From assembly GCA_902525595.1 (NCBI GenBank), contig CABZHO010000002.1, positions 24,395 to 88,394 on the forward strand: a DNA stretch of 64,000 bases, in the 5' to 3' direction. Under the pieces are notes generated by a model, which was given only the letters and a program-made list of their open reading frames with translations, was not told where the DNA came from and made no database searches. Source of the DNA: an uncultured Pelagibacteraceae bacterium (lineage in GTDB: Bacteria; Pseudomonadota; Alphaproteobacteria; Pelagibacterales; AG-422-B15). Below are positions 1 to 25,034 of this stretch, one piece after another. The first letter of the stretch is position 1. Each line of letters starts with the position of its first letter. The position numbers and the translations under genes are program-made.

Positions 1-2
1 AT

Positions 3-830
3 TACGCAATTTTTCCACACATCAATGTTGAAAAAAATGTTCAGTTTGGTTTAAGAAAACTTGGCTTAACAAACGATGAAATTATCAAAAGAGTTAAAGA
101 CGTTTTGTCGTTGGTTAAATTAGAAGGATATGAGGAACGCTATAGTAGCCAACTATCTGGAGGTCAAAGACAAAGAGTAGCATTGGCAAGGGCTTTAGTA
201 AGACAACCCAAGGTCTTATTGCTGGATGAACCACTTGGAGCATTAGACAAAAAGTTACGTGATGAAATGCAACTTGAATTAAGAACTCTACAAAAAGAGA
301 TTGGAATAACATTTGTATTTGTTACACATGATCAGCAAGAAGCCATTAGTATGTCTGATCGAGTCGCGGTGATGAGCGAAGGTAAAATCCAACAGATGTC
401 ATCCCCAAATGAATTATATAAAAACCCACAAAATATTTTTGTGAGTGACTTTATTGGTGAAACTAATTTTCTAAAAGCCAATACAGAGTTGAAAGATGGC
501 GAGTATATTAATGTAAACATTGAAAATCTTGGCTCCTTTAAAATAAAAAATAATCTCAATATAAGTGAAAATGCTTCAGAGGTTATTTGCAGTGTTCGTC
601 CTGAGACTATGATGATAGATACAGAAAAATCAGATTGGGATATTTGCTTAGAAGGCAAAATTAAGCAAACATCATATTTGGGAGAAATGACTAAATTTTA
701 TGTTGAAACAAAAGAGATAGAAAAAATTATAACTGTATCGTCACAATATTTTGACAATCAGTCTTTCCAAGATGGCAAATGCTTTATCAGCATAAACCCA
801 AACGATATTTCCTTACTGAATAAAAAATAG
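3..830 (+). CDS. ABC transporter ATP-binding subunit, PotA/polyamine-import type (5' end cut by window edge)
   Basis: Frame is open from nt 3. ABC signature LSGGQRQRVALARAL, Walker B LLLDEP, H-loop VTHDQ. C-terminal TOBE-like domain. Confidence 0.85.
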   Translation, partial: YAIFPHINVEKNVQFGLRKLGLTNDEIIKRVKDVLSLVKLEGYEERYSSQLSGGQRQRVALARALVRQPKVLLLDEPLGALDKKLRDEMQLELRTLQKEIGITFVFVTHDQQEAISMSDRVAVMSEGKIQQMSSPNELYKNPQNIFVSDFIGETNFLKANTELKDGEYINVNIENLGSFKIKNNLNISENASEVICSVRPETMMIDTEKSDWDICLEGKIKQTSYLGEMTKFYVETKEIEKIITVSSQYFDNQSFQDGKCFISINPNDISLLNKK

Positions 831-881
831 CCTGTCCTCAAGAGAGAACAAGCTATTTTAAATTAGTCAATTAGTAGTGTA

Positions 882-1970
882 TTAACCACCAGCTACCATT
901 TCAGCCCACTGAGCTTCCATGTAGTCTGTCACTTCGTCAGTTGGCATCACCGAGAACATTCCATTATTTAAATGTTCTATAGGATTTGAAGCAACGCCAC
1001 GTTCAGCTAATTCGTCAGCTGTAAGTGTGCTAAATCCGGCTTTATTACTGTGTCCATAACCCCACTCACTTAACAAGTAAGCAGATGTTTCAGCACTAGT
1101 AGCGCCATTTATCATCGCGTATGCTTTATCAAGGTCTGCACCTTTAACAATTGCTAGACCGCATGCCCAAGTCATAGTGCCATTAGAAGGCTGCATCATT
1201 TTAGCTCCTGCGCTCCATGCAATTTCGTTCCAGCCAAGTGCTACGTCTATTTCTTCGTTACCTAGCGCTTCTATCATTGAAGAAGTATCTCCAAAGAATG
1301 CACGAATTTGTCCATTGTCTCTCATTTCACGGAACTTATCGATACCTTGATCAATAGCAGCTTTAGTAAGTTGATCTTGCTCTCTGATATCAATTCCAAG
1401 ATGGTGCATCATTAAGAACAAAGAGTCAGCCGCAGAGTCTAATATACCGACTTTACCTTTCACTCGAGGATCCTCCATAAGAGCAAAACTTTCATTAGAA
1501 GCATCCATCCAATCAATTCTATCAGCCATGTAAAACAATGTTGTGTCGCCCCAATCTACAGGTGCAAAATAATGCTTTCCATCAACCATACCGCTTGGTA
1601 GATCTCTAACTTCAGGGAACATATCATCCCAGTTGTCAATTCTAGATGGATCAAGTGGTTCTAAAACGCCAGCTCTTACCCATCTCTTAATTTCTCCTTG
1701 GCATGGCCAGGCTAAATCAACCTCAAAACCAGCTTTTAGTTTTTGTAATCCTTCTTCAGCATCACCGAATATTGAATACTCAGGGGAACCGTGTTCTTCA
1801 GCATATGTACCAAACAGTCCATCATCATCGTAACCTCCCCAAAGGAATACAGATCCAGGCTCATCTGCAAAAACTTTTGTCGTACTTGTTACGCCTGCAA
1901 TAAAAACAAACGACAGCATCACGATTACAGTTTTTACAAAGAAATCCTTAATTTCATTGTATCTTCGCAT
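882..1970 (-). CDS. Periplasmic substrate-binding protein, PotD/PotF (polyamine) family
   Basis: 362 aa. N-terminal signal peptide (VIVMLSFVFIAGVTSTTKVFA). Length and overall similarity fit family-1 extracellular solute-binding proteins. It lies next to a PotA-like ATPase. Confidence 0.75.
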   Translation of the reverse strand: MRRYNEIKDFFVKTVIVMLSFVFIAGVTSTTKVFADEPGSVFLWGGYDDDGLFGTYAEEHGSPEYSIFGDAEEGLQKLKAGFEVDLAWPCQGEIKRWVRAGVLEPLDPSRIDNWDDMFPEVRDLPSGMVDGKHYFAPVDWGDTTLFYMADRIDWMDASNESFALMEDPRVKGKVGILDSAADSLFLMMHHLGIDIREQDQLTKAAIDQGIDKFREMRDNGQIRAFFGDTSSMIEALGNEEIDVALGWNEIAWSAGAKMMQPSNGTMTWACGLAIVKGADLDKAYAMINGATSAETSAYLLSEWGYGHSNKAGFSTLTADELAERGVASNPIEHLNNGMFSVMPTDEVTDYMEAQWAEMVAGG

Positions 1971-2041
1971 AATTAATTAATCCTTTTTTTTGTTTAAACG
2001 TGAAAATTGTACACCTATTATAGAAATATGGTCAATATATA

Positions 2042-3535
2042 TCAGTCAAAAATTGGCCGATTTTTAACATTATTAAGCCACGGATCGAGTATTTCGTAGT
2101 TGTACCCCCCTTGAAACACCAATTCATCGCAATAAGAGCGAGCAATAATTTGAATACCTGTTGGTACCCTATTTGAACTGAAACCCGATGGAACCGAAAG
2201 CACTGGTAGCTTTCCCAACATATTAAATGGATGAGACATGCACCATGCGAAGTCAGCGCATTCTTGTTTTTTTCCATTTATGACGACCTGGTCATTTACT
2301 ATATCAATATCAGCCTTGATTGCAGGTAAGGCATTTGTAGGACAGATAAATAAATCATATTTTTCCAATATTGGGCCAATTTCTTCATACATTTTACCAG
2401 TTACCATTGCGCTCTCCTCAACGCCATAACCCAAGTGAGCGCCAATTTGTTCGTGATAAATTTTTTTATTATTCCTTAGAGAGTCAATATGCATTGAAGT
2501 TACACCACTTAACATCTTTGTATAATCACTCAGCTGTTCTTTTTCTGAGTAAGAAAGCTCAGAAATTTCTTTATAAAAAGAATTCGCATAATGACTAAAA
2601 CAAACCGAATTTACTTCATCTTTTTTCCAATTAAGTTTGACCTCTGTGACCTGACACCCAAGACTTTTAAATTTTTTTAATGCTGCCAGAGTATTCTGTT
2701 CAACTTCTTTATCAATTTCAAAAAATCCTAAGTCCATCGAATAAGCAATCTTCCAATTTTTAATATTTTCGTAATTTAACGGTAATATTTTTTTTGGTCG
2801 TAGAGATGTTATATCTTTTTGGTTTGGCCCACACATAATGTTTTGCATCATGGCGGTATCAACTACTGTTCTTGTGAGCGGGCCTGTTACACAGTAAGGA
2901 TCATGATTGAATGGATAACTTTGAGCATTTCTTCCATGGGGCGGTTTGAATCCAACAACACCGCACGCGCCTGCTGGTATCCTTATTGAACCTCCAATAT
3001 CACTTCCAGTAGCTAACATGGCACAACCTGAAGCTAATGCAGCTGCACTGCCTCCACTTGATCCACCCGGTGTCATGTCTAAGTTCCAAGGGTTTCTTGT
3101 TACACCATTTAATTTTGAGTGACAAAAAGAAGTGAGAGAGAATTCAGGATTAGTTGTGCGACCGTGAAGTATCGCTCCAGAATTAACTATTGTTTCAACA
3201 TCAATATCTGTTTTCTGTGCGATATTTTCCTTGAGAAGCAAGCAACCATTACGGTTTGGCTGCCCTTTTATATTTACCTCATCTTTAATAGCCAGGGGTA
3301 TACCTTCAAGAGGCAAAACATCCTTATCATTAAAGAATTTTTTTTCTGACTCTTTTGCGAGCTTTAAGGATGTATCAAAATCAAGATAATTAAATGCATT
3401 TATCTCAGGATTAACTTTCTCTATTCTTTTAATTACAGCTGACATAACTTCAACTGGAGATAATTTTTTTTCTTTGTACTTCTTTAGTGTATCTGAAGCG
3501 GATAAATAACAAATTTCGATATCAGTATCATTCAT
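2042..3535 (-). CDS. Amidase-signature (AS) family amidase
   Basis: 497 aa. Canonical AS motif GGSSGGSAAALASG and the conserved GSDIGGSIRIPA block. Confidence 0.85.
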   Translation of the reverse strand: MNDTDIEICYLSASDTLKKYKEKKLSPVEVMSAVIKRIEKVNPEINAFNYLDFDTSLKLAKESEKKFFNDKDVLPLEGIPLAIKDEVNIKGQPNRNGCLLLKENIAQKTDIDVETIVNSGAILHGRTTNPEFSLTSFCHSKLNGVTRNPWNLDMTPGGSSGGSAAALASGCAMLATGSDIGGSIRIPAGACGVVGFKPPHGRNAQSYPFNHDPYCVTGPLTRTVVDTAMMQNIMCGPNQKDITSLRPKKILPLNYENIKNWKIAYSMDLGFFEIDKEVEQNTLAALKKFKSLGCQVTEVKLNWKKDEVNSVCFSHYANSFYKEISELSYSEKEQLSDYTKMLSGVTSMHIDSLRNNKKIYHEQIGAHLGYGVEESAMVTGKMYEEIGPILEKYDLFICPTNALPAIKADIDIVNDQVVINGKKQECADFAWCMSHPFNMLGKLPVLSVPSGFSSNRVPTGIQIIARSYCDELVFQGGYNYEILDPWLNNVKNRPIFD

Positions 3536-3587
3536 GATGATTTTTTATTTAAATTTAACAATTATTAAAATATATTGAAAATAATTT

Positions 3588-4682
3588 ATGATAAGTGAAA
3601 AAATTAAAAGTCTAATACAGAGTCAAGATCCACATGCGGGAATGGACCAACTTTTCTTTACAAATTCTGAGGTATTTCATGCAAGCTATGATGCGATTTT
3701 TAAAAAACAATGGATTTTTCTTACTCATCACTCATATTTTGATCAAAACGATGTCTTTACATACAACTTGAATAGAGGATTTATAGAGATAAAAAAAACA
3801 GATGATAATCAACTTTCAATTGCCGCTTCTGATCCAGAAATCCAGTGTCATATAAGGGTGTATGAGAGTTTAGTTTTTATCAATTTATCAAACTCTCCCT
3901 ATTCTTTTGATGAGTTCATCAAACCGCTTGAACCATATATTAAAATACATGGACTGAATGATGGCAAGATTGCTTTTCAAAAAGATTTTATTTTTAAAGC
4001 TTCACATTTGGCTACAATTCATAACTTTAAAGAATGTGCTCATTGCTGGGGAGGTGAATTTACACACAAAGATTATCTAAGTGTGCATGGTGAAGATTAT
4101 TGCAATTCTTATGGTGCGGGTGTTGGTTCAGGGATTGAAGCTCCTAAACTTACAAAACGTATTAAAGAGTGGACAGAAGAAACATTAAAGAGGGGTTTAT
4201 TTGTTGGGGAGTTCAGTGAACATGATTCAAAATATTTTAGAATCGCAGAACGAACACCTTTGCCTGATGGTATTGTATCAGAAACAATGGACGGTAGTTA
4301 TTCTTGCTCTAAATTGATGGGCGATTTTAAGAAAATTGGTGCCGACAATGGTTATACCGCAATTGGTTTTAGTCCATTCAATAGCTTTGTCGCAAATAAT
4401 GAATTTGTAATTCTTTTTTTATTCTCACCGATTAGTCAAAATAAAACAGTAGTGACACAATATTGGGTAACTCATAAAGATGCGGAAGTTGATGTTGATA
4501 AAATGATTTTTTTGTGGAACCAAACTTCTACTGAAGACTCACAGTTATGTGAAATGAATCAAAAGGGAATTGAAAGCAGGTCCTATCAACCTGGTAAATA
4601 TGGGAATTTGGAGACGAGCTTAGTTCAATATCAGAAATTTTACCTTAATCATTTACAGACACACCTGAACGACTTAGTCTAA
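3588..4682 (+). CDS. Ring-hydroxylating oxygenase alpha-subunit homolog lacking the Rieske [2Fe-2S] ligands
   Basis: 364 aa. The catalytic-domain block HNFKECAHCWGGEFTH resembles the NWK..EN..ECYHC...H motif of GbcA/Stc2-like oxygenases. The N-terminal 100 aa contain a single Cys, so no CxH...CxxH Rieske site is possible. Confidence 0.55.
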   Translation: MISEKIKSLIQSQDPHAGMDQLFFTNSEVFHASYDAIFKKQWIFLTHHSYFDQNDVFTYNLNRGFIEIKKTDDNQLSIAASDPEIQCHIRVYESLVFINLSNSPYSFDEFIKPLEPYIKIHGLNDGKIAFQKDFIFKASHLATIHNFKECAHCWGGEFTHKDYLSVHGEDYCNSYGAGVGSGIEAPKLTKRIKEWTEETLKRGLFVGEFSEHDSKYFRIAERTPLPDGIVSETMDGSYSCSKLMGDFKKIGADNGYTAIGFSPFNSFVANNEFVILFLFSPISQNKTVVTQYWVTHKDAEVDVDKMIFLWNQTSTEDSQLCEMNQKGIESRSYQPGKYGNLETSLVQYQKFYLNHLQTHLNDLV

Positions 4683-4700
4683 CTTTAATTCGATACCTAT

Positions 4701-6071
4701 ATGGAACCTGCAACACAATCAGAATTTGATGAAGTGCTTAATCGTCATCATAATATTCAATACGTAGACGCAATATTTACAGACCTTTGTGGTTATGTGA
4801 GGGGAAAAAGATTTCCAGTGTTAGAGGCAGATAAAATTTTTTCAGATGGTGTATTGTTACCGTTTTCAGCATTTTATTTGGATGTTCTTGGTGGCGTAAC
4901 AAACACGATGAATCTTGGTTGGACAGACGGAGATCCTGATGGTGTTTTAATACCCATTAAAAATTCCATTAAGCTCGTTCCTTGGGACAGTAAAGTTCTT
5001 CAAGTATTAATTTCTATGAGAAAAGATCAGGAAAAATGGGGTGTAATAGAAAATCCGGCGGAAGTTGATCCAAGAAATATTCTAGAAAAAGTAATGAATA
5101 AATTTAAAGGCACGGGTTTAAATCCAGTAGTAGCTTTTGAATTAGAGTTTTATTTGTTGGATAAGAAAAGAAATAAGGAAGGCAAGCCAGTTCCTGCATT
5201 AGGTGCGAGTAAAACTCATGTATATGGCATTCCTGATCTTGATATGTTTGGAGACTTATTTAATGAAATTAATGAAAACTGTAAAATCCAAGATATACCT
5301 GCAACAACAGCCTCAAGCGAATTTGCTGCGGGCCAATATGAAATTAATTTAAAGCATACTAGCGACCTGCTTAAAGCAGCGGATGATGCTGCAATGTTAA
5401 GAAGAATAATAAAAGAAACAACTGCGAAGCATGGATTTGAGGCAACATTTATGGCAAAGCCATTTCTTGAGGAGACGGGAAATGGAATGCACCTTCATAT
5501 TTCAGTATACGATGATGATGGAAAAAATATATTTGCAACCAAGAATCGTTACGGAAATGATAAGTTAAAAAATGCGTTAGCAGGTTTCCAAGAAACTTTT
5601 TATGACTCATTTCCAATATTTATTCCAAATAGAAATGGTTACAGAAGAATACAAACTAGAAATTTTGTTCCCGTTAATAAAAGTTGGTCTTGGAATCGAA
5701 GGGATGTTTCATTAAGAATACCTGCTGGATCAGATAGCGCAAAAAGAATAGAACATCGGGTAGCATCAGCTGATGCAAATCCATATCTCGTTTTAGCATG
5801 CATACTATCTGGACTTCACTATGGGCTTACAAAAAAATTATTACCAATAGACCAAGTAAGTTTTGATAATACTGAAGGTGCTGATAAGACTGCTGATCCT
5901 GAAATGCCAAAAAATATGGAGTCCGCATTAAATCGTTTTAAAGATTCAAAAATTTTATCAAAGTATTTAGGAAAAGAATATCTTGATTTATATGTATCCG
6001 CTAAAGAAGGTGAATTTGAACATATGGATAACAGTTTCATACCCTCAGAAGAATATGAGTTTTATTTATAG
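4701..6071 (+). CDS. Glutamine synthetase family protein (probable gamma-glutamyl-amine ligase, PuuA/GmaS-like)
   Basis: 456 aa. GS catalytic blocks FELEFYL, GNGMHLHISV, NRRDVSLRIP and RIEHRVASADANPYL. Confidence 0.8.
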   Translation: MEPATQSEFDEVLNRHHNIQYVDAIFTDLCGYVRGKRFPVLEADKIFSDGVLLPFSAFYLDVLGGVTNTMNLGWTDGDPDGVLIPIKNSIKLVPWDSKVLQVLISMRKDQEKWGVIENPAEVDPRNILEKVMNKFKGTGLNPVVAFELEFYLLDKKRNKEGKPVPALGASKTHVYGIPDLDMFGDLFNEINENCKIQDIPATTASSEFAAGQYEINLKHTSDLLKAADDAAMLRRIIKETTAKHGFEATFMAKPFLEETGNGMHLHISVYDDDGKNIFATKNRYGNDKLKNALAGFQETFYDSFPIFIPNRNGYRRIQTRNFVPVNKSWSWNRRDVSLRIPAGSDSAKRIEHRVASADANPYLVLACILSGLHYGLTKKLLPIDQVSFDNTEGADKTADPEMPKNMESALNRFKDSKILSKYLGKEYLDLYVSAKEGEFEHMDNSFIPSEEYEFYL

Positions 6072-6075
6072 ATTC

Positions 6076-6795
6076 ATGACCGATCTACTTTTCAATCAAG
6101 ATAGTTACTTAAAAGAAACAGAAGCCAGCATTATTGGTGTTGAAGAAAATATAATAAAATTGGATAGGACAATTTTTTATGCAGAGTCGGGTGGACAACC
6201 TGGAGATCAAGGTGAGATTGTTTTAAAAGATCAGGTTCTCAAAGTGATAGATACTAAAAAAGGATCAAAGCCAAATGAAATTTTGCACATTGTTGATGGT
6301 CTCATTGATCAAAGTTTAATTAATCAATCTGCTTTACTTAGGATTAATTGGGAACTTAGATATGCACATATGAAAATGCATTCTAGTTGCCACATTTTGT
6401 GCAGCTTAGTTGACGCCTTGATAACAGGTGCATCAGTTGGAAGTACTAAATCAAGAATTGATTTTGATGTTGATCCATCGATGCTTAATAAAGAAGAGTT
6501 AAATGAAAAGATTAGAGATATTATTAATAAAGACTATCCAATAATTATAAACCAAATTACAGGAGATGAGCTAAAATCTAATCCTCACTTAGCTAAAGGA
6601 GCGGCTGTTTCACCTCCAGTAATTGATAACAAAGTTCAAACAGTCCAAATAGGTGAGGGAAAAAACATTATTGATCTTCAGTGTTGTGGCGGTACACACT
6701 GCCAATCTACAAAAGAAATTGGACCACTTGAGATTGGAAAGATTGAAAATAAAGGTAAGAGAAACAGGCGAATTAATATAAGGTTTAATTCATGA
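6076..6795 (+). CDS. AlaX-like metal-dependent hydrolase (alanyl/threonyl-tRNA synthetase second additional domain)
   Basis: HxxxH (MHSSCH) and CxxxH (CGGTHC) zinc motifs. The ATG at 6076 lies 5 nt after the GS-like stop; the ORF-track start at 5983 overlaps the upstream gene. Confidence 0.7.
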   Translation: MTDLLFNQDSYLKETEASIIGVEENIIKLDRTIFYAESGGQPGDQGEIVLKDQVLKVIDTKKGSKPNEILHIVDGLIDQSLINQSALLRINWELRYAHMKMHSSCHILCSLVDALITGASVGSTKSRIDFDVDPSMLNKEELNEKIRDIINKDYPIIINQITGDELKSNPHLAKGAAVSPPVIDNKVQTVQIGEGKNIIDLQCCGGTHCQSTKEIGPLEIGKIENKGKRNRRINIRFNS

Positions 6796-7556
6796 CAGAT
6801 ATTTTAGTAAGTAAAGATGATGGACAAGTTGTAACGCTCACTCTTAATGATGCGCCAGCAAATTGTCTAACAATGGAAATGATGTCTGCAATAAAAATGG
6901 AGATTGATCGTGTTAATCAATCTAAAGATCACAAACTCGTTATATTTGAAAGTTCAAATGAAAAAATATTTTGTAGCGGACACAGTTTTAACGAAGTTCA
7001 AGAGATGATTAAAAATAATGACATGAAATCACAAGAACTTCTCTTTGCAGAGTGCTCTGAAATGTTAATGAAAATTAGAAAAAGTCCAAAAATTTTTGTT
7101 GCAAAAGTAAGAGGAATAGCAACCGCTGGTGGGTTTGGATTAGTAAGTATAATGGACTGTGTTTTTAGTTCAAAATCAGCAAGATTTGCACTTGGGGGTA
7201 TAAATTTTAATTTTGGATGTCATCAACCATCAGTTTCAGTAGCGCGTGCAACATCACCAAAAAATGTTATGGAATTACTAGTAAGCGGTCAGCCACTTAA
7301 TGCTCAGAGAGCACAAGAAGCTGGGCTCATAAATGAATACTTAGAAGATGATGCATTAGATAAAAGAGTAGAAACATTTTCCAAGCAAGTTTGCGACCAT
7401 ACTCCTGAAGTACTCGCTCTCACAAAAGAAACATTATATAAGCAGTCGTCAATGAACATTTCTGATGCCTATGACTTTGCAAGTAAAGCAATGGTTGAGA
7501 ACCTTCAAATGCCTGAAACTAAAAAGGGCATTGATACATTTTTAAATAAAAGTTAA
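6792..7556 (+). CDS. Enoyl-CoA hydratase/isomerase (crotonase) family protein
   Basis: 254 aa. Crotonase-fold blocks (FCSGHSF, ATAGGFGL). Overlaps the upstream gene by 4 nt. Confidence 0.75.
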   Translation: MTDILVSKDDGQVVTLTLNDAPANCLTMEMMSAIKMEIDRVNQSKDHKLVIFESSNEKIFCSGHSFNEVQEMIKNNDMKSQELLFAECSEMLMKIRKSPKIFVAKVRGIATAGGFGLVSIMDCVFSSKSARFALGGINFNFGCHQPSVSVARATSPKNVMELLVSGQPLNAQRAQEAGLINEYLEDDALDKRVETFSKQVCDHTPEVLALTKETLYKQSSMNISDAYDFASKAMVENLQMPETKKGIDTFLNKS

Positions 7557-9296: not shown

Positions 9297-9446
9297 ATGG
9301 AATTTTTAATATTCATTGCTCTTTGCGTTCTTATTTATATTGTTTATCTTGCTCGCCAAGATTTCAAAGATCATTCTGTGAGAATTGAGAGTCAAATGCA
9401 AAGAGTTACCGAAGTGGTAATCAAAACTCAAGATAAAGAAGAATAG
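9297..9446 (+). CDS. Hypothetical 49-aa single-pass membrane protein (below the ORF-track cutoff)
   Basis: ATG...TAG ORF, MEFLIFIALCVLIYIVYLARQDF..., with one TM helix. A perfect TATAAT (9286-9291) sits 5 nt before the ATG, so the transcript may be leaderless. No SD sequence. Confidence 0.3.
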   Translation: MEFLIFIALCVLIYIVYLARQDFKDHSVRIESQMQRVTEVVIKTQDKEE

Positions 9447-24281: not shown

Positions 24282-25034
24282 CTAAAGTTTAAATGTGTCT
24301 CCCAGGTAGAATTTTCTGGCTTCTTTGTTTCCAAGTATTTTGTCGTTGTTCCCCTCTGCAATAATTTCTCCTGCGTGCATCACATAAGAATAATCGCATA
24401 TATCAAGAACTTCCCTGACATTATGATCAGTTATAAGGACACCAATATTTCTTTTCATAAGTTGTCTTATAAGTTTTTTAATATCATCAATACCTATTGG
24501 ATCAACTCCTGCAGTTGGCTCATCCATCAGTATTATGCTTGGATTTGAGCAAAGGCATCTTGCAATCTCTGTCCTCCTTCGCTCTCCTCCACTCAACATG
24601 TGAGGCATTGCTCTTCTTAAATGTGACAGCGAAAATTCTGTTAGTAATTCTTCTAAAATATTTTGCATCTGATTTTTTTGGTGTCCTTTTGTTTCTAAGA
24701 TAGATAATAGATTGTCTTCAACTGACATTCCTCTGAAAATAGATGGTTGTTGGGGTAAAAAGCCTAATCCGAGCCTTGCCCGTTTATAAATAGGTATAGT
24801 TGTAATGTTTTCATCATCTAAGAATATTTCTCCTCCATCACATTTTATAAGACCCATAATCATATAAAAAGTTGTTGTCTTTCCAGCTCCGTTTGGACCT
24901 AGCAAGCCTATAGTTTTTCCTCTTTCAAGCTCAATACTTACATCTCTAACAATTTGTTTACTAGATAGAGACTTACGGAGATTTTTTGCCTGAAGTCCCC
25001 TGTTAGACGAAATTAATTTTGGTAAACTGCTCAT
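24282..25034 (-). CDS. lptB: LPS export ABC transporter ATP-binding protein
   Basis: Walker A GPNGAGKTT, signature LSGGERRR, Walker B ILMDEP. Last gene of the kdsD-lptC-lptA-lptB array. Confidence 0.9.
   Translation of the reverse strand: MSSLPKLISSNRGLQAKNLRKSLSSKQIVRDVSIELERGKTIGLLGPNGAGKTTTFYMIMGLIKCDGGEIFLDDENITTIPIYKRARLGLGFLPQQPSIFRGMSVEDNLLSILETKGHQKNQMQNILEELLTEFSLSHLRRAMPHMLSGGERRRTEIARCLCSNPSIILMDEPTAGVDPIGIDDIKKLIRQLMKRNIGVLITDHNVREVLDICDYSYVMHAGEIIAEGNNDKILGNKEARKFYLGDTFKL

Follow-up and report, generated by a model that had tools for sequence, protein, structure and literature searches.

Gene content of the locus

The window analysed here, 64,000 nucleotides (nt) of DNA from an uncultured Pelagibacteraceae bacterium, starts at base 24395 of a 96.6-kb contig, and its first 7556 positions carry the compact gene cluster that is the subject of this work. 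On the plus strand, a homolog of Rieske oxygenase alpha subunits that lacks the Rieske centre precedes a ligase of the glutamine synthetase (GS) family, an AlaX-like gene and a crotonase-fold gene; on the minus strand, an amidase-signature gene and a solute-binding-protein gene run in the opposite direction. An earlier note on this DNA had described these six genes with their coordinates, two divergent operons around 3536-3587 and a 4-nt overlap between the last two genes. The list of open reading frames (ORFs) reproduced all six ORFs of 1-7556 at those positions, the spacer between the operons is indeed the 52 nt separating two start codons, and the AlaX-like and crotonase genes overlap as described (6076-6795 and 6792-7556). 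Profile searches against Pfam and NCBIfam agreed with the six family labels. The features are as follows.

3-830, plus strand: PotA-type ATP-binding cassette (ABC) ATPase, C-terminal 275 residues (TIGR01187 potA, 286 bits on the fragment)
882-1970, minus strand: periplasmic solute-binding protein, SBP_bac_8 (PF13416, 68 bits), 3' of the amidase
2042-3535, minus strand: amidase-signature enzyme (PF01425, 288 bits against a cut-off of 27), divergent from the ligase operon
3536-3587, no strand: divergent spacer, 52 nt between two divergent start codons, AT-rich
3588-4682, plus strand: Rieske-less oxygenase alpha homolog, 364 residues (PF00848, Ring_hydroxyl_A, only; GbcA model positions 151-417)
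4701-6071, plus strand: GS-family ligase, predicted to be of the PuuA type (PF00120, Gln-synt_C, 295 bits)
6076-6795, plus strand: AlaX-M-like editing-domain protein, 239 residues (PF07973 and PF01411; tRNA_SAD/AlaXM-like)
6792-7556, plus strand: crotonase-fold protein of the ECHDC3/PRK08139 type (PF00378, ECH_1, 111 bits)

The plus-strand genes are closely packed, with a gap of 18 nt between the oxygenase homolog and the ligase. The start of the AlaX-like gene, most likely the ATG at 6076, with which its length of 239 residues matches that of its homologs, lies 4 nt past the ligase stop. The amidase translation shows the GGSSGGS signature and the upstream KD lysine expected of a Ser-cisSer-Lys stretch, and its nearest solved chains are an aryl acylamidase and the glutaminase subunit GatA. 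The binding protein had been described as PotD/PotF-like. A relation to PotF was recovered, but the likeness is distant: the PotF model gave 45 bits against a cut-off of 636, and the best matches in the PDB were Lmo0810 (4GL0, E 1.1e-15) followed by PotF (E ~1e-15), suggesting that the protein is a distant relative of PotF/PotD. It is kept at the same position in related genomes, with 44-95% identity.

A predicted ligase of the PuuA type

The residues of the ligase were read from an alignment with Escherichia coli GlnA and PuuA and are given in GlnA numbering. The ligase and its orthologs keep E129, E131, E212, E220, H269, H271, R321, R339, R344, E357 and R359, which cover the metal, ATP and glutamate sites. 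A different picture emerged at D50, S53, Y179 and E327 of GlnA, which we take to be the ammonium site: the ligase carries the changes D50P, S53A, Y179V and E327F, and the same positions in E. coli PuuA hold P, V, V and Y. The adenylylation Tyr is not present in the ligase. Overall, the ligase shares 38-39% of its residues with E. coli PuuA and 25% with GlnA; the genome also has a separate TIGR03105-type ligase gene (605 bits, above its cut-off), to whose product identity is 26%. This pattern points to a PuuA-type gamma-glutamyl-amine ligase and not to an ammonia-dependent GS, and the protein appears to be a relative of PuuA, not a PuuA equivalog.

The cluster continues upstream of the window

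We compared the 19 kb of the contig that lie upstream (L004). The ATPase fragment at the window start belongs to a full-length PotA gene (L004:18143-19225; 375 bits against the TIGR01187 cut-off of 356), which closes a long plus-strand operon whose start is upstream of the window. PotB and PotC lie immediately 5' of PotA, and the same plus-strand run encodes two flavoproteins of the amine-oxidase/CrtI-like kind, a GcvT-like aminomethyltransferase, an omega-aminotransferase, a GbcA-like Rieske oxygenase of full length (412 residues; C2:19801-21039) and a DAO-family flavoprotein. Farther upstream are a BetI-like TetR regulator, an MFS transporter, a GNAT acetyltransferase, a second aminotransferase, an acyl-coenzyme A (CoA) dehydrogenase and a Peptidase_C26 protein (C2:8280-8927), whose sole NCBIfam match was PuuD (135 bits, below the cut-off of 266).

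Comparison with E. coli K-12 gave 38% identity between PuuA and the ligase, 30% between PuuB and the DAO-family flavoprotein (C2:21171-22265) and 37% between PuuD and the C26 protein; an aldehyde dehydrogenase with 49% identity to E. coli PuuC is located on contig C16 beside topA. Homologs of all four Puu steps (ligase, flavin adenine dinucleotide (FAD)-dependent oxidase, aldehyde dehydrogenase and gamma-glutamyl hydrolase) are thus encoded in the genome, the ligase, DAO and C26 genes being spread over ~22 kb on one contig and the aldehyde dehydrogenase gene lying on another. The earlier note had found several expected parts absent. Positions 1-7556 indeed hold no Rieske centre, oxidase or class-I amidotransferase-type hydrolase, but the genes for these are found on the same contig, 7-20 kb farther upstream. 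The genome has a Rieske paralogue of full length as well as genes like PuuB, PuuC and PuuD, and the parts seemed absent because the window edge cuts the cluster. We read positions 1-7556 as the right-hand end of a ~27-kb island for uptake and catabolism of polyamine-type amines, and we give this explanation as a whole, which is drawn from sequence comparison, a probability of about 0.55.

Three further observations concern the upstream genes. The flavoprotein pair and the GcvT-like gene form a trio (L004:7989-12330, C2:13988-18329) that is also found in L012, L013, L051, L052 and L063, and it recurs together with the DAO-ligase pair in distant Alphaproteobacteria at 30-45% identity; we know of no described system that matches it, and its products may demethylate or dealkylate amines in a folate-linked reaction. 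The GNAT acetyltransferase and MFS transporter genes (L004:5628-7246, C2:11627-13245, minus strand), which lie between the aminotransferase and the BetI-like regulator, may be a side branch for polyamine acetylation and export. A branch from cadaverine through glutaryl-CoA to crotonyl-CoA, using the upstream acyl-CoA dehydrogenase and the crotonase, was considered and rejected as unsupported, given the weak match of the dehydrogenase to glutaryl-CoA dehydrogenase (204 bits, where the cut-off is 470) and the missing hydratase glutamates in the crotonase.

An oxygenase homolog without a Rieske centre

The description of the 3588-4682 product as an oxygenase homolog without a Rieske centre was borne out. 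In an alignment of 51 sequences, a deletion of ~45-49 residues relative to full-length relatives removes both cluster motifs, CxH and CxxH, throughout the clade, and the Rieske domain PF00355 gave no match in the window protein. H152, H160, D317, N146 and E149 are invariant in the same alignment. H152, H160 and D317 make up the 2-His-1-carboxylate iron triad, which is thus retained, and E149, three residues before the first His, occupies what we take to be the position of the carboxylate that bridges to the neighbouring subunit's Rieske histidine in CntA-type enzymes. The AlphaFold2 model has a mean predicted local distance difference test score (pLDDT) of 92, and a six-stranded remnant of the N-terminal beta-domain is kept and confidently folded. 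The best fold matches were 3N0Q and Stc2 (3VCA/4QUR), with template modelling (TM) scores of 0.82-0.85, followed by CntA at ~0.6; sequence identity to these solved structures is only 22-23%.

The Rieske-less clade is monophyletic (100/100) with a stem of 1.24 changes per site. With a ratio of nonsynonymous to synonymous substitution rates (dN/dS) of 0.065, the gene is under purifying selection and not decaying. In most genomes that carry it, a full-length paralogue lies ~8 kb away in the same island. As part of the island explanation, we regard the protein as a paralogue of the full-length oxygenase in the island that has taken on a new function and is predicted to bind iron. The retained bridging glutamate and the constant nearby paralogue are consistent with a mixed trimer, in which the Rieske-less subunit would draw on the Rieske centre of a full-length partner for its electrons; this is our preferred guess, and a tentative one that we would sooner expect to fail than to hold.

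There is no reductase or ferredoxin partner gene in the island; only a small Fer2 ferredoxin lies elsewhere. Five family genomes (G000, G002, G004, G006 and G008) each encode two full-length Rieske oxygenases, neither of which adjoins a reductase gene.

A variant in G006 (L014:15487-16566; G006:C15, minus strand) takes the same operon position and is 359 residues long, with 39% identity to the window protein. It has no 3-residue insertion between the two His ligands, and its iron-site loop has the spacing of the full-length type. Either it branched off early within the Rieske-less clade or it arose by an independent loss; the tree does not settle its placement, nor whether the loss within the family was single or repeated. 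Three more Rieske-less lineages (P0257, P0265 and P0279), ~28% identical, came to light when 1.84 billion representatives were searched exhaustively, and because of these further lineages Rieske loss appears to recur in the Stc2/GbcA subfamily. The three proteins (L093, L094) are members of that subfamily in unrelated bacteria of high G+C content, and the gene for one of them overlaps the end of a gene for a 753-residue FAD oxidoreductase located after a PhyH-family gene. The neighbourhoods of P0257 and P0279 are unrelated contexts with no GS-like gene nearby, and so give no independent link between oxygenase and ligase; no Rieske-domain gene was called on the DNA shown around these two. Clusters with Ring_hydroxyl_A only are also listed in the Atlas for phages and fungi, as leads only. 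A literature search returned no description of a Rieske-less bacterial oxygenase alpha subunit or of this operon, and as far as that search shows, a conserved Rieske-less oxygenase homolog beside a ligase is undescribed.

Conservation of the gene order

Occurrence was counted in 59 genomes of one Pelagibacterales family and in 241 of the main family. The Rieske-less protein or its full-length paralogue was matched in 51 of the 59, and neither was found in the main family (0/241). A core order recurs in eight loci or genomes of the smaller set (L005, L007, L009, L089, G002, G004, G006 and G008): binding protein and, in most cases, amidase on the minus strand, followed on the plus strand by the Rieske-less gene, the ligase, the AlaX-like gene (sometimes absent) and the crotonase. 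Relatives within the family share 58-93% identity with the window copy for the Rieske-less protein, 55-97% for the ligase and 41-94% for the crotonase. The amidase is present in 43 of the 59 genomes, in each case adjacent to and divergent from the Rieske-less gene.

The ligase and the crotonase each occur in two sequence types, the ligase being either 456 residues long with the AlaX-like gene present or 449-450 residues long with it absent. When positions 4701-7556 were compared with L005, L007, L014 and L021, the types diverged to 61% (ligase) and 42% (crotonase) identity, as against 79-90% for the flanking genes in L005. G008 is a mosaic that joins a type-A ligase and AlaX-like gene to a type-B crotonase. 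The two-type pattern is suggestive of recombination that swaps cassettes.

Outside the family, the best ligase relatives (37-48% identity) are found in Spu/Pau-like polyamine clusters or directly 3' of an orthologous DAO gene, and their loci often also carry the flavoprotein pair and GcvT. The DAO gene is immediately 5' of the ligase in L012, L013 and L052, and L065 groups PotABC, a binding protein, an aminotransferase, two ligases and a DAO gene. In the metagenome loci L071 and L072, the full-length oxygenase adjoins the DAO gene and agmatine deiminase genes, and L071 also has an amidase gene (59% identity) that diverges from a ligase gene (46% identity). In 20 loci from other alphaproteobacterial families, a search of the 10 kb around the ligase turned up neither a Rieske-less protein nor AlaX or the crotonase. 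Ranked by depth, the DAO-ligase link appears to be the broadest; the amidase-ligase link (this family and L071) and the oxygenase-DAO link (this family, L071 and L072) come next, and the Rieske-less/ligase/crotonase link, confined to this family, comes last. Conservation of the cluster as a unit in related genomes, on which the earlier prediction had been staked, thus holds inside one Pelagibacterales family and does not extend beyond it.

The AlaX-like and crotonase-fold genes

The AlaX-like translation carries the HxxxH and CxxxH zinc motifs (PF07973, 42 bits) and scores 186 bits with the AlaXM equivalog, under the cut-off of 300. The gene occurs in 43 of the 59 family genomes, in the operon every time, and is the sole free-standing copy in these genomes. 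Its distribution follows genus lines (present in g1 and g3, missing from g2 and g4), and it was not found anywhere in the 98%-complete G006 genome. Among 401 sampled Alphaproteobacteria, single-copy AlaX-like homologs (34-49% identity) occur in 145 and single-copy crotonase-type homologs (30-39% identity) in 154, and the two genes are near each other in one genus of small genomes only. Five metagenome loci that carry the ligase or the full-length oxygenase contained neither gene. Both are under strong purifying selection, with dN/dS values of 0.046 (AlaX) and 0.037 (crotonase).

The best solved homologs of the crotonase are 3MYB and human ECHDC3 (2VX2), which match over the full length at E 1e-35 to 1e-36 and share its SGH and LFC(S/H)TP motifs. 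The two positions of the PaaF catalytic Glu residues are G/Q and G/A/V in both crotonase types of the family, and in an alignment with E. coli PaaF and ScpB the FCSGHS motif resembles the FSAGHD of methylmalonyl-CoA decarboxylase. Because both hydratase glutamates are missing, the name enoyl-CoA hydratase would be a fold label only for the 6792-7556 product, which is not predicted to be a canonical hydratase. To our knowledge, no reaction has been assigned to the ECHDC3/PRK08139 branch. The neighbourhood of a distant crotonase homolog, P0221, consists of unrelated genes.

The AlaX-like gene and the crotonase are probably general-purpose passengers that are predicted to be co-transcribed with the ligase yet are not steps of its pathway, and a pathway role for the crotonase seems unlikely. 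The earlier grouping of both with the pathway finds no support in their wide single-copy occurrence (145/401 and 154/401) or in their absence within 10 kb of the ligase in the 20 other-family loci and from the five metagenome loci.

Proposed pathway

The island explanation is built on observed features: the gene content, the PuuA-type ligase site, the retention of the iron site, the order within the family, and the presence of PuuB-, PuuC- and PuuD-like genes. The gamma-glutamylation logic that the earlier note had proposed for the cluster gains from the PuuA-like ligase site, from orthologs that stand beside PuuB-like flavoproteins and Spu/Pau-type polyamine genes, and from the 52-nt divergent region that the ligase operon has in common with the amidase/binding-protein operon. 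A cationic amine would be imported through the Pot-like ABC system, and the ligase would then join it to the gamma-carboxyl of glutamate as a tag. The tagged amine would be oxidised by the PuuB-like flavoprotein and the PuuC-like aldehyde dehydrogenase. The pair of Stc2/GbcA-type oxygenases would also oxidise the conjugate, and may hydroxylate the carbon next to the nitrogen, splitting secondary or methylated amines. The glutamate would finally be freed by the PuuD-like C26 hydrolase, the amidase-signature enzyme or both. GatA, a member of the amidase-signature family, hydrolyses the gamma-amide of glutamine. The backbone of this pathway is of a known kind. What this analysis adds is the genomic context upstream, the PuuA-type assignment from individual residues, the complete Puu set, the account of where AlaX and the crotonase occur, and the further Rieske-less lineages.

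Several observations weigh against this explanation. The ligase falls under every NCBIfam equivalog cut-off (177 bits against 650 for GGputSyn, NF045547), and because all of these cut-offs are missed we file it as PuuA-type with the amine unspecified, not as PuuA itself. The amidase is missing in G006, which is 98% complete, and in L007. Conservation within the family is weak functional evidence, because SAR11 genomes are highly syntenic and the unrelated downstream genes djlA and pdxH are kept in the same order. All examined loci that have the Rieske-less gene also have the crotonase, so that a genuine role for it is conceivable. The loop that joins the two His ligands, longer by 3 residues in the main Rieske-less clade, is modelled with the lowest confidence. 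Finally, the FNR-type reductase domain PF00175 was found in none of five family genomes (the five named above, of which four are at least 96% complete; the search did not include Pyr_redox-type reductases), and because no such domain was found the electron supply of even the full-length oxygenase is unexplained.

Alternative explanations

The ligase could be an ordinary ammonia-assimilating GS with unrelated neighbours, the outcome that the earlier note had named as fatal to its proposal. Its top NCBIfam score is indeed to the GlnA model, but at 198 bits it is far under the cut-off of 429; all four ammonium-site residues are swapped at PuuA's positions, the adenylylation Tyr is absent and the orthologs are located in polyamine clusters, so that the residue pattern is not that of an ammonia-specific enzyme and we consider this explanation highly improbable. 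A less remote alternative is that the four plus-strand genes and the amidase make up one dedicated pathway for a single amine or amide, with AlaX and the crotonase acting on the gamma-glutamylated intermediate or on its CoA or adenylate derivative. The coupling of the genes is tight (gaps of 18 and 4 nt, and the 4-nt overlap), the crotonase invariably accompanies the ligase in the family, and AlaX is found nowhere else in these genomes, occurs only with the 456-residue form of the ligase and, where it is absent from the operon, is absent from the whole genome (G006). A crotonase without hydratase glutamates must do other chemistry, and dN/dS is 0.037-0.065 for all these genes. Yet AlaX- and ECHDC3-like genes at 30-49% identity are single-copy in 145 and 154 of the 401 Alphaproteobacteria, as vertically inherited general genes would be, neither is near the ligase in the 20 other-family or five metagenome loci, the genus boundaries of AlaX fit a single gain or loss, and the operon has no CoA ligase or CoA transferase. 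On balance, a dedicated pathway of this kind is unlikely, and the polyamine-type island with two passenger genes is preferred.

For the Rieske-less protein itself, the question is whether it still works as an oxygenase. It may no longer be one, but a metal enzyme without redox activity or an SRPBCC protein that binds a ligand or acts in regulation, or it may use O2 with all electrons taken from the substrate. Loss of the Rieske ligands and the lack of an FNR-type reductase in the five genomes favour this, the long stem (1.24) and the 3-residue insertion point to an altered active site, and other Rieske-less lineages exist, with no Rieske-domain gene called near P0257 or P0279; the Ring_hydroxyl_A-only clusters of phages and fungi, as leads, go in the same direction. 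The invariance of the iron triad and of the glutamate at the bridging position argues against it, as do the full-length paralogue that is almost always ~8 kb off in the island and the N-terminal beta-domain remnant, which is kept as a trimer interface would need. We regard these non-oxygenase and substrate-electron readings as unlikely. That the protein is a working oxygenase of an undescribed kind on gamma-glutamyl-tagged amines, either as an alpha-prime subunit fed in trans or as a reductant-independent iron enzyme, is slightly more probable and still doubtful. If it is one, the G006 variant, P0257, P0265 and P0279 would define a new functional class.

Comparison with known systems

The closest described systems are the E. 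coli Puu and Pseudomonas Pau-Spu pathways, which share with the island a GS-family ligase with the PuuA ammonium-site pattern, an orthologously paired PuuB-like flavoprotein of the DAO family, a C26 PuuD-like hydrolase, a PuuC-like aldehyde dehydrogenase, omega-aminotransferases and a Pot/Spu-type ABC importer. However, identities here are only 30-49%, the ligase is under the GGputSyn cut-off, and the SAR11 genes are spread over ~27 kb with the aldehyde dehydrogenase elsewhere in the genome. The SAR11 island also adds the amidase-signature enzyme, two Stc2/GbcA-type oxygenase homologs (one of them Rieske-less), two amine-oxidase-like flavoproteins and the GcvT-like protein.

The aniline-type and isopropylamine (Ipu) systems, whose substrates are aryl or small alkyl amines, use either a complete two-subunit Rieske dioxygenase together with its reductase or a P450. 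The SAR11 homolog next to the ligase differs from these in having no Rieske centre and no beta subunit or reductase nearby, and it belongs to the quaternary-ammonium demethylase branch. The resemblance lies in a GS-like ligase gene that adjoins an oxygenase gene, as in the aniline and 1-naphthylamine systems (AtdA/TdnQ and NpaA1; eLife 2024, PMC11335346) and in the Ipu pathway, where the logic is to tag the amine with glutamate, oxygenate the conjugate and remove the glutamate.

Stc2, GbcA and CntA, which are alpha3 Rieske monooxygenases, provide the best folds for the Rieske-less protein, with GbcA as the best NCBIfam match and the iron triad and glutamate kept; in contrast to them, the SAR11 protein has its cluster-binding Rieske part wholly deleted, shares only 22-23% identity and has a longer His-His spacing. 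The crotonase matches ECHDC3/PRK08139 proteins (2VX2, 3MYB) over the full length with shared motifs, and this branch differs from enoyl-CoA hydratase in lacking both hydratase glutamates. The AlaX-like protein has the domain pair, both zinc motifs and the ~240-residue length of free-standing AlaX-M, and is single-copy as in its alphaproteobacterial homologs, but it is under the AlaXM cut-off and in this family is found only within this operon.

Ecological and enzymological context

SAR11 bacteria dominate the surface ocean, where polyamine-type amines are a major labile nitrogen source. A published reconstruction for two cultured SAR11 strains concluded that the last enzyme of the gamma-glutamylation route is missing from both (PMC8437039). 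The presence of homologs of all four Puu steps and of extra oxidative enzymes in a different SAR11 family would point to niche differences between SAR11 families in the use of dissolved organic nitrogen. A conserved and selected Rieske-oxygenase alpha subunit without a Rieske centre also poses the question of its electron source, and this protein, with 364 residues, a confident model and a defined set of neighbouring partners, is a tractable target.

The divergent spacer and a small conserved gene

The ligase operon and the amidase/binding-protein operon use one 52-nt divergent region. Of its alignment columns, 33 are invariant in seven genomes in which the flanking proteins are only 59-79% identical. 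The core of the spacer is AT-rich, about TTTTATTTnAATTTA..AATTAnTAAAATATATT, with quasi-palindromic arms, and it may be an operator common to both divergent operons. A scan with consensus promoters gave 29 promoter-like sites against 36 by chance in shuffled sequence, and terminator-like sites numbered five in both. In 20 marine metatranscriptome runs, just 8-16% of the sampled words were present, shares too small to bear on expression. Downstream of the cluster, a small ORF at ~9297-9446 between djlA and pdxH corresponds to a gene of 47-51 residues at the same place in L005, L006, L007, L009, L010 and L089, and its position appears to be conserved across the family.

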